Positions 3,649 through 4,546 of a stretch of 11,964 bases of DNA are shown here, in pieces. Position 1 is the first letter of the stretch. Each line of letters starts with the position of its first letter. The stretch lies in the UHGV virus genome UHGV-1565976. One strand, given 5' to 3'. This DNA is from a virus. Both the position numbers and the translations under genes were made by a program. The notes under the pieces are model-generated. The model ran no database searches. It worked only from the letters and a program-made list of their open reading frames with translations, and had not been told where the DNA came from.

Positions 3649-3677
3649 AAGATAAAATGAAGTTGCGCATTATGCAA
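3649..3677 (-). promoter_or_regulatory. candidate pL-like promoter
   Basis: On the minus strand: -35 TTGCAT (3677..3672), 17-nt spacer, -10 TATCTT (3654..3649); overlaps an operator-like site. Confidence 0.35.
3663..3677. promoter_or_regulatory. operator-like site, TTGC-N7-GCAA (oL candidate 1)
   Basis: TTGCgcattatGCAA; same half-site pattern recurs on both sides of the repressor gene. Confidence 0.4.
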
Positions 3678-3686
3678 GTGTTTTTA

Positions 3687-3701
3687 TTGCGAGATATGCA
3701 A
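3687..3701. promoter_or_regulatory. operator-like site, TTGC-N7-GCAA (oL candidate 2)
   Basis: TTGCgagatatGCAA, 24 bp centre-to-centre from the first oL candidate. Confidence 0.4.
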
Positions 3702-3710
3702 TTTGGTGGG

Positions 3711-3735
3711 TAATGAAAAGCCACCTTCTGGTGGC
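3711..3735 (-). terminator. candidate intrinsic terminator for the repressor gene
   Basis: Perfect 6-bp GC-rich stem GCCACC-ttct-GGTGGC (3720..3735), followed on the minus strand by UUUUCAUUA; begins 22 bp after the repressor stop. Confidence 0.5.
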
Positions 3736-3756
3736 TAATTGATGTTGAGGTAGGGG

Positions 3757-4449
3757 TTAATTGTGTCGCTTAAGGGTTTGTGACTGACTGATTAAGACCT
3801 TTCCAAAGACCATAAACCGATGTTCGTTTTCGCTGGTAATTCCCCATTCGCGGTAAATCTGATTATCAGAAATTACCAGCAGTTTATCAGGTATCATTTG
3901 CAGTCGTTTGACGTAAATTTTATCATCAAAACCAAATACATATATACCATCCCCATCAAACTGATTGATACTGATATCAACGAAGATGAGATCTCCTGGC
4001 TCAATGGTTGGACACATACTGTCCCCACGAACGTTGATAACTTTAATGTGATTGGCTGGCCGTCCGCCAAACATCGATACAGCATTATCAGTTCTGTATT
4101 CAATGGCATGAATCACATCAATGACATCACCGCCCTGGATAAGGCCATTTCCCGCACTGGCACTGACATCCAGCATTTCAATACGGAATACATCCTTCAC
4201 CTGCGCAACATCCTCACTAATACTGTTTTTACATACAGTATTACTTTTGACGTCTGAGGTAAAGAGATCAGCAATATCAACACCTAAGCTCCTGGCAATA
4301 TTACTCAGGGCTTGTTCAGTGAATTGTTTCTGCTTACCTGTTTCCAGGCGTGAGATATTCGCCGCATCCACTCCTATTGCTTCAGCGAGATCGGCGATTT
4401 TCATGTTCTTCGCCTGGCGAAGTTGTCTGACTCGGTTTCCTATGTTCAT
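3757..4449 (-). CDS. cI-like repressor: N-terminal XRE helix-turn-helix plus C-terminal S24 (LexA-like) self-cleaving peptidase domain
   Basis: 230 aa; N-terminal ...MKIADLAEAIGVDAANISRLETGKQ HTH; C-terminal ...VRGDSMCPTIEPGDLIFVD...KIYVKRL with the Ser/Lys dyad context; Ala-Gly in SASAGNG as candidate cleavage site; no SD upstream of the ATG. Confidence 0.85.
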   Translation of the reverse strand: MNIGNRVRQLRQAKNMKIADLAEAIGVDAANISRLETGKQKQFTEQALSNIARSLGVDIADLFTSDVKSNTVCKNSISEDVAQVKDVFRIEMLDVSASAGNGLIQGGDVIDVIHAIEYRTDNAVSMFGGRPANHIKVINVRGDSMCPTIEPGDLIFVDISINQFDGDGIYVFGFDDKIYVKRLQMIPDKLLVISDNQIYREWGITSENEHRFMVFGKVLISQSQTLKRHN

Positions 4450-4455
4450 GCGTTT

Positions 4456-4484
4456 ATTACATTTCTTTATTGCGCGTTAAGCAA
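4456..4484 (-). promoter_or_regulatory. candidate pRM-like promoter giving a leaderless repressor mRNA
   Basis: On the minus strand: -35 TTGCTT (4484..4479), 17-nt spacer, -10 TGTAAT (4461..4456); predicted start lies at or next to the ATG at 4449. Confidence 0.4.
4470..4484. promoter_or_regulatory. operator-like site, TTGC-N7-GCAA (oR candidate overlapping the pRM -35)
   Basis: TTGCgcgttaaGCAA. Confidence 0.4.
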
Positions 4485-4490
4485 ATCAAC

Positions 4491-4519
4491 TTGCGCAAAA
4501 TATTTGCGTGAAATAATAT
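4491..4519 (+). promoter_or_regulatory. candidate pR-like promoter for the cro-like operon
   Basis: -35 TTGCGC (4491..4496), 17-nt spacer, -10 TAATAT (4514..4519); GGAGG at 4538..4542 ahead of the ATG at 4547. Confidence 0.5.
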
Positions 4520-4532
4520 GCTCATCACGCAA
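4518..4532. promoter_or_regulatory. operator-like site, aTGC-N7-GCAA (oR candidate overlapping the pR -10/start)
   Basis: ATGCtcatcacGCAA, one mismatch from the TTGC-N7-GCAA pattern; a palindromic TTGCGCAA at 4491..4498 may be a further site. Confidence 0.35.
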
Positions 4533-4546
4533 TATGTGGAGGTTAT

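Follow-up and report, generated by a model that had tools for sequence, protein, structure and literature searches.

A probable lambda-type immunity switch with an operator sequence of its own in an mEp460/SfII/ST64B-type lambdoid prophage

Which kind of lysis/lysogeny switch lies at positions 3649-4582 of the UHGV virus genome UHGV-1565976, and which DNA sequence does its repressor recognize? The stretch analysed is 11,964 nucleotides long and is referred to at its full length as the window. An earlier reading of the sequence (the original prediction) described a compact immunity switch with a recurring 15-bp operator-like pattern, TTGC-N7-GCAA, and a probable leaderless repressor mRNA. We find it likely that the region is the immunity switch of a lambdoid prophage of the mEp460/SfII/ST64B type, and this interpretation of the earlier reading is supported by gene content, by the positions of the sites and by comparative conservation. 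Between 3400 and 4900 the window shares 99.3% identity with phage mEp460 and 96-99% with several Escherichia phages, Stx2a-converting ones among them; its identity to Shigella phage SfII, in which the genes of this region are annotated cI, cro and cII, is 90.7%. The window repressor is 100% identical to that of mEp460, 96% to that of SfII and 84% to that of ST64B, and the operator arms and the layout are the same, which places the locus in an immunity group whose repressors are at least 84% identical.

The switch is built around two divergent genes:

3757-4449, minus strand: CI-like repressor of 230 amino acids, with an N-terminal HTH_3 domain, an Ala99-Gly100 cleavage motif and a Ser144/Lys181 S24 dyad (Pfam, PHROGs, alignment).
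4547-4807, plus strand: Cro-like HTH_3 protein of 86 amino acids, with the Shine-Dalgarno (SD) sequence GGAGG at 4538-4542 (Pfam).

The repressor matches HTH_3 (1.1e-10) followed by Peptidase_S24 (5.8e-19), and Ala99-Gly100, Ser144 and Lys181 are invariant across the aligned relatives and in register with UmuD'. Judged by its domains and active-site residues, the protein is a repressor of the kind found in lambdoid switches, in which a helix-turn-helix (HTH) domain is joined to a LexA-like, predicted self-cleaving S24 domain. The 97 bp that separate the repressor start (4449) from the divergent cro-like gene (4547) form the short back-to-back promoter region, predicted as such from gene order and promoter motifs, that likewise characterizes these switches. 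The recognition helix of the repressor, ANISRLETGKQK, is nearly invariant across relatives, paralleling the invariant operator arms described below, and helix 3 of Cro (LSRIER) is invariant among relatives and similar to the ISRLE of the repressor. No close solved structure was found for the repressor or for Cro, the nearest being remote only (dh434, E = 2e-4).

Four sites in the non-coding DNA on either side of the repressor gene carry the operator pattern, two in the left operator cluster (OL) and two in the right (OR); as dyads they are listed without strand:

3663-3677: OL1 operator, TTGCGCATTATGCAA, an exact TTGC-N7-GCAA and the best weight-matrix match in both the window and the mEp460 genome.
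3687-3701: OL2 operator, TTGCGAGATATGCAA, an exact TTGC-N7-GCAA, 24 bp from OL1 (22-24 bp in relatives).
4470-4484: OR3-like operator, TTGCGCGTTAAGCAA, an exact TTGC-N7-GCAA that spans the -35 hexamer and half of the spacer of the repressor maintenance promoter pRM.
4518-4532: OR1-like operator, ATGCTCATCACGCAA, an ATGC-N7-GCAA with one mismatch, which begins with the final two bases of the pR -10 hexamer; the fourth best weight-matrix match.

The recurrence of one pattern at all four places, as originally claimed, is thus exact at 3663, 3687 and 4470, and holds at 4518 with one mismatch. Exact copies of TTGC-N7-GCAA occur five times in the window against 0.50 expected, a count that none of 200 dinucleotide shuffles reached. 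Three of them lie within roughly 205 bp of non-coding sequence, for which the whole-window rate predicts about 0.009. The further two (6136 and 8932) are in coding DNA and have G/C-rich centres and low or no matrix scores, and we take them to be chance matches. With one mismatch allowed there are 13 matches against 9.4 expected and the window as a whole is not enriched; the site at 4518 therefore rests on its position and conservation and not on the pattern count.

A weight matrix was built from 83 distinct sites in related loci with the window left out, and gave the consensus TTGC(G/A)-N5-(C/T)GCAA, in which the N5 is W-rich and the centre positions 6-10 are A/T-rich and non-conserved. The OL training sites were picked with at most one arm mismatch, which makes the arm information partly circular, and the OR3 and OR1 training sites were picked by geometry and their arms come out alike. 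Among about 11,950 window positions the matrix places 3663, 3687, 4470 and 4518 as the top four, at 20.9, 19.5, 15.6 and 14.0 bits, with a chance expectation of 0.07 matches of at least 14 bits. A motif search through the full prophage had been suggested with the original prediction; across the 44.5-kb mEp460 genome the same four sites are again the top four, and there are no further copies of comparable quality and no other intergenic region that comes close. Weaker matrix matches of 5.8-10.5 bits (6136, 6183 and 6300) cluster at 6097-6314, inside a Rha-type gene, another lies at 6851, and all are probably due to chance, as is TGGCGCAGTCTGCAA at 5029 in the CII-like gene, which is common to SfII and a Shigella locus.

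Three predicted promoters, each with a 17-nt spacer, coincide with these sites:

pL, minus strand: -35 TTGCAT at 3677-3672 and -10 TATCTT at 3654-3649, with a predicted leftward start near 3641-3643.
pRM, minus strand: -35 TTGCTT at 4484-4479 and -10 TGTAAT at 4461-4456.
pR, plus strand: -35 TTGCGC at 4491-4496 and -10 TAATAT at 4514-4519, with a predicted start near 4524-4527.

On the minus strand, the right arm of OL1 together with 2 further nt (3672-3677) forms the pL -35, and OL1 and OL2 on predicted pL make up the second operator cluster at a leftward promoter that a lambdoid switch possesses. On the other side, OR3 lies on the pRM -35, a middle element (OR2, described below) carries the pR -35, and OR1 shares two bases with the pR -10. 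The overlap of the sites with candidate pL, the pRM -35 and the pR -10 is therefore as first proposed, both by position in the window and by conservation of the promoters, whose hexamers and spacings are kept among relatives. The equivalent of the pL -10 (AAGATA on the plus strand) is found at the same offset in most relatives compared, ST64B having TAATTT.

Conservation was assessed over 27 loci, namely the window, SfII, ST64B (taken as locus L004, which is 100% identical to it), Klebsiella phage Kp4874-4, Escherichia phage Flotzy and 22 bacterial loci from a genome-contig scan. The related repressors in the bacterial loci are 40-96% identical, and the genera covered by the whole set include Escherichia, Salmonella, Shigella, Citrobacter, Kluyvera, Klebsiella, Pantoea, Mixta, Proteus, Serratia, Rosenbergiella and others. 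A viral-contig scan gave near-identical copies only, which were of no use for covariation, and the diverged set came from the aligned genome-contig scan. On the plus strand all 27 loci show the same order: CAT, 6 nt (7 in one locus), ATTACA or a variant of it (the pRM -10), 8 nt, the 15-bp OR3 dyad, 6 nt, the element TTGCGCAA, and OR1. Counted from the start of OR3, TTGCGCAA begins at +21 and OR1 (ATGC-N7-GCAA) at +48, and ATGC...GCAA is present at +48 in 26 of the 27. The A at OR1 position 1, found in 26/27 loci, completes the pR -10, for which TAnnAT stands at its offset in the same number of loci, and this explains the mismatch at 4518. Just past the repressor terminator, at about -807 and -783 from OR3, are two further dyads, OL1 and OL2, which are retained in most relatives.

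The mean frequency of the commonest base over 25 distinct OR segments was as follows:

Operator arms: 0.99
TTGCGCAA: 0.98
pRM -10: 0.95
pR -10: 0.92
N7 centres: 0.67
Other spacers: 0.60

Arms that take no part in a promoter (both arms of OL2, the left arms of OL1 and OR3, and the right arm of OR1) are just as conserved as the others.

Does the locus share the specificity of lambda? The layout is like that of lambda in that the repressor and cro genes diverge about 100 bp apart (97 bp here and 100 bp in lambda), dyad operators lie over pRM and pR with a second cluster at pL, the repressor is of the S24 self-cleaving type, and the pRM -10 hexamer is 6 nt from the repressor ATG. However, the window repressor has no similarity to lambda CI beyond the protease motif, the N-terminal domains not aligning, and the 15-bp operators (TTGCG-N5-CGCAA) are unrelated to lambda OR1-3, which are 17 bp long (TATCACCGC...). 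We therefore rejected imm-lambda, and the original claim of an operator different from that of lambda, and hence of a distinct specificity, is borne out. Other differences concern architecture. There are two OL sites here instead of three, the middle OR element is a half-operator palindrome, and the OR sites are spaced 21 and 27 bp from start to start versus 23 and 24 bp in lambda. In lambda, OR3 occupies the pRM spacer, with OR2 directly next to the -35, whereas here OR3 lies on the -35 and OR2 is centred near -49. Unlike in lambda, the repressor gene is monocistronic with its own terminator and lacks rexAB. Further contrasts are the HTH_3 type of Cro, the CP76 type of the CII-like protein and the lack of an annotated N homologue.

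In 434 and P22 the repressor and Cro are all-alpha, HTH_3-type proteins with similar recognition helices, and the operators have short conserved arms around a non-conserved, A/T-rich centre. The window resembles these phages, since its repressor and Cro are both HTH_3 proteins and its operators combine short conserved arms with a variable A/T-rich centre, and the repressors of P22-like phages and HK022 are about 42% identical to that of the window. The arm sequence differs, being ACAA in 434 and TTAA-type in P22 and TTGC here. ST64B (sb38/sb39) and SfII (cI/cro), as members of the immunity group of the window, share its operator arms and layout and differ in the N7 centres and spacers. The e14 element of E. 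coli K-12 (ymfK-ymfT-ymfL) has the same gene order of S24 repressor, cro-like gene and YmfL/CP76 gene, and its ymfK-ymfT intergenic region (locus L003, 6940-7020) has 4-N7-4 dyads in similar places with GTAC arms (GTACCGTTAAGGTAC and GTACACCGGAGGTAC). We rejected e14 as a member of the same immunity group, as the DNA-binding part of YmfK is unrelated, its alignment being limited to the protease motif, and the GTAC-N7-GTAC dyads make it heteroimmune. It illustrates how immunity modules are swapped while the phage architecture stays the same. A statement in Genome Research (2025) that the operator specificity of the LLS/mEp460_4F5 repressor is unknown does not apply to the present locus; the mEp460_4F5 repressor differs from that of mEp460.

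With regard to the repressor message, the pRM -10 is followed by 6 nt (AAACGC) and then by the repressor ATG at 4449, a space too short for any SD sequence. The usual start 7 nt downstream of the -10 would therefore fall on the A of the AUG, and the maintenance mRNA is probably leaderless, with a start predicted from promoter geometry at or next to A4449. The geometry that had been pointed out earlier, TTGCTT-17-TGTAAT abutting the repressor ATG without an SD as in lambda, recurs in 25 of the 27 loci, in which 6-7 nt separate the -10 from an ATG start. In the two exceptions, the Rosenbergiella loci L100 and L102, the -10 is followed by some 40 nt before the start, which by frame reading is apparently a GTG behind a GAGAG motif. 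Leaderless mRNAs need a 5' AUG, and the leaders and GTG starts of these two loci are consistent with that need. In lambda, where the order is CAT-ACGTTA-AATCTA, 6 nt also separate the ATG from the -10, and the lambda cI mRNA made from pRM is leaderless.

The alternative that survives best, which we regard as unlikely yet worth keeping in view, concerns only the leaderless part of this reading. The repressor mRNA could be leadered, starting upstream at TCCACA-16-TATTAT (4540 to 4513) or at a CII-dependent promoter in or beyond cro, or translation could begin at an internal ATG at 4404. The promoter from 4540 to 4513 is the sole intergenic leftward match of a promoter scan, but its TCCACA -35 is the cro SD region read on the other strand and is not conserved in the SfII, ST64B and Klebsiella relatives, and its TATTAT -10 mirrors the pR -10, for which reasons we rejected it. 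By contrast, the TGTAAT 6 nt from the repressor ATG is one of the conserved hexamers listed above (0.95). The internal start is that of the RefSeq mEp460 product of 215 amino acids; it would cost the protein HTH helix 1 and 15 conserved residues, and was rejected too. Residues 1-15 (MNIGNRVRQLR...) are kept in all relatives and the Pfam HTH_3 profile begins at residue 7, which points to a start at 4449, and the resulting 230 amino acids are backed by the SfII annotation and the comparative data. Leaders of about 40 nt do occur in L100 and L102, and the presence of a CII-like activator makes it probable that an establishment transcript with a leader is made alongside the maintenance mRNA.

Two further features complete the switch:

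3719-3736, minus strand: intrinsic terminator ending the repressor transcript ahead of OL/pL (terminator scan; annotated in SfII).
4800-5351, plus strand: CII-like activator of the Phage_CP76/YmfL type (Pfam; PHROGs phrog_101), a probable establishment regulator.

Relatives retain a hairpin and a T-run at the position of the terminator, with differing stem sequences.

Taken together, the evidence argues with good confidence for a lambda-type bistable, heteroimmune, SOS-cleavable CI/Cro switch with a DNA specificity of its own. The pattern, its statistics, the gene families and the conservation of sites and promoters are directly seen in the sequences, and from them we infer the occupants of the operators, the order of occupancy, the transcription starts and the cleavage. 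Dimers of the 230-amino-acid repressor would bind the 15-bp dyads of consensus TTGC(G/A)-N5(A/T-rich)-(C/T)GCAA. Occupancy of OL1 and OL2 would block pL, occupancy of OR1 (pR -10/+1) and of the OR2 element (pR -35) would block pR and cro, and OR3 over the pRM -35 would allow negative autoregulation at high repressor levels. Transcription from pRM, initiated on or beside the A of the repressor AUG, would produce a leaderless, monocistronic maintenance mRNA ending at the terminator at 3719-3736. Upon SOS damage, RecA-assisted self-cleavage at Ala99-Gly100 through the Ser144/Lys181 dyad would free pR and pL, and the Cro-like protein, with its similar recognition helix, would then take the same operators and shut pRM. 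The CP76-type CII-like protein probably drives establishment transcription.

It is also conceivable, though improbable, that the sites are bound by the Cro-like protein alone, by the CII-like protein or by a host factor and not by the S24 repressor. The Cro-like protein is likewise an HTH_3 protein with an invariant helix 3, and lambda CII recognizes TTGC repeats, to which the direct TTGCG repeats at 4491 and 4504 may be compared. However, the CII-like protein here belongs to the 186 CP76 family and not to the lambda CII family, and the sites are inverted and not direct repeats. They are located at pL and pR, the promoters that an immunity repressor has to control, OL1 and OL2 adjoin the repressor gene in every locus, and the recognition helix of the repressor is as invariant as the arms. 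The idea that TTGC...GCAA is a mere by-product of conserved promoters (TTGnnn -35 boxes in AT-rich DNA) and no operator at all, for which it can be said that three TTGC arms fall on the -35 hexamers of pL, pRM and pR, is highly improbable, given that the arms lacking a promoter role are equally conserved, the 4-N7-4 dyad geometry is retained while the N7 changes, a matching site inside cro is retained by codon choice, and nowhere else between the genes of the 44.5-kb genome is there a match of this quality. The equal conservation of the non-promoter arms and the dyad geometry therefore contradict both of these explanations, and operators bound by the S24 repressor remain the preferred reading.

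Where the locus may depart from lambda is in the middle of OR and inside cro:

4491-4505, no strand: OR2-like element, consisting of the invariant TTGCGCAA (4491-4498), the first 6 nt of which are the pR -35, with no recognizable right arm.
4568-4582, no strand: candidate fourth operator, GTGCGTAAGGCGCAC, in cro codons 8-12, with the inner TGCG-N5-CGCA intact and both outer bases changed.

The TTGCGCAA element is a perfect 8-bp palindrome and is among the most conserved parts of OR. The right arm expected for an OR2 operator is missing in the window (TTGCGCAAAATATTT) and is present within one mismatch in 11 of the 27 loci. A second TTGCG at 4504 creates a perfect swapped-arm palindrome, CGCAAA-ATA-TTTGCG, at 4494-4508. 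This second TTGCG, at +13, is kept only in a sub-lineage made up of the window, SfII, a Shigella flexneri chromosomal locus and two Citrobacter loci at 93%, and the 5 nt in between vary. As a family feature we rejected this palindrome as the canonical middle operator, given its swapped arms and the fact that beyond the sub-lineage conservation is limited to the left TTGCGCAA.

The site in cro scores 5.7 bits in the window and ranks tenth in the matrix scan. In relatives, a site within one mismatch (TTGCG-N5-CGCA(A/T)) lies at +98 to +100 from OR3 in 18/27 loci (e.g., L004-L006 and L090-L109), and ST64B has such a site (TTGCGGAAATCGCAT) where the window copy is degenerate. Relatives that encode Leu-Arg-Lys-Ser/Ala at this place use TTG for Leu8, TCG for Ser11 and GCG for Ala11 without exception, whereas variation is seen in the codons of Leu5, Arg6, Thr15 and Leu16 and, for Arg9 and Lys10, at the third position. 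This codon usage suggests that cro codons 8-12 probably contain a fourth operator that has degenerated in the window lineage. At about +49 from the pR start it could serve as a roadblock or a loop anchor. The segment 4568-4582 was also flagged as a hairpin, and the element could equally be an mRNA hairpin. The inventory of operators in the original prediction thus stands for its four sites, and it had overlooked the middle OR element, the probable fourth site and the terminator between the repressor gene and OL. A tentative suggestion, which we hold with some reserve, is that the switch departs from lambda logic; TTGCGCAA would offer only overlapping half-sites, activation from -42 as in lambda would be unlikely, and a fourth operator in cro would be kept by codon choice in most members of the family.

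Several observations weigh against the lambda-type reading or limit how far it can be taken. Where a lambdoid switch has three related dyads in OR, there are two full ones here (4470 and 4518), and the second arm of the middle element is missing in the window and weak in most relatives. The OR2 centre is at about -49 from pRM compared with -42 in lambda, which puts the operators 7-9 bp further upstream, and activation of pRM of the lambda type is not to be assumed. OR3 outscores OR1 in the weight matrix, the reverse of the affinity order in lambda, with the reservation that matrix score is not affinity. None of pL, pRM and pR was picked up by a consensus promoter scan of the window, since each -35 hexamer agrees with the consensus only at TTG (3/6). 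The TTGC arm doubles as a -35 hexamer at three places, so its conservation may be partly promoter-driven, and because of their common descent the 27 loci do not yield independent conservation counts. Finally, no operator definition, binding data or mapped transcript (5' end) was found in the literature on mEp460, SfII/SfV, e14 ymfK/ymfT, ST64B, sb38/sb39 or the motif, a search of incomplete coverage to which an earlier description may have been lost.

Downstream of the CII-like gene, an open reading frame (ORF) at 5348-6496 on the plus strand contains Rfam matches to isrK (5708-5784, 58.7 bits) and to C4 antisense RNA (5809-5896, 78.8 bits). They lie just upstream of an in-frame ATG at 5951 (SD at about 5936-5942) with which a Rha-type antirepressor-like protein (phrog_821) begins, an arrangement that looks like the antisense control of an antirepressor in P1 ImmI, and the pair is present in ST64B (L004) as well. 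The same DNA gives a Pfam Phage_ASH match at residues 117-212 of the long ORF; either this 382-amino-acid ORF is over-extended or the Phage_ASH match reflects conserved RNA genes.

On the other side of the switch, a gap of about 590 nt (3050-3640) separates the predicted pL start (~3642) from the nearest leftward gene of the annotation (2672-3034/3052). Just two ORFs are annotated in this gap, 3107-3250 and 3292-3660, both on the opposite strand and convergent with pL, and ORF 3292-3660 has no Pfam or PHROG match. In relatives, an element of about 60 nt (CGAACAGGCAGGACGCCCACGAAGUAGCC...GGAUGAUUCG in the orientation of the pL transcript) lies just downstream of pL (L001 at about 2905-2970, L003 at about 6100-6165, L004, L006, L091, L096, and L111 at about 690-750). 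It occurs in phages with different repressors (e14, SfII, ST64B, Flotzy and mEp460_4F5), and three pairs in a predicted hairpin or closing stem show compensatory changes. No Rfam family covers the element, which bears no resemblance to the HK022 pL region (the site of put) and does not occur in the window; we regard it as a candidate for a structured leader RNA in N-less lambdoid phages.

We conclude that the locus is a switch of a known, lambda-style type that is well supported in silico and common in enterobacteria, and for whose operator sequence we found no description in print. The immunity module was found in 1040 of 5426 complete E. coli genomes, or about one fifth, and it is also carried by Stx2a-converting phages, the serotype-converting Shigella phage SfII and Salmonella ST64B. 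The operator consensus and the promoter map would allow homo-immune prophages to be predicted, would aid the design of operator and repressor mutants for induction studies, including those on the induction of Stx phages, and let the RefSeq start codon of the mEp460 repressor be corrected. The locus adds one further specificity to the lambda paradigm and leaves the paradigm itself unchanged; the odd middle OR element and the fourth site within cro are its only unusual features and the only parts able to teach something new.

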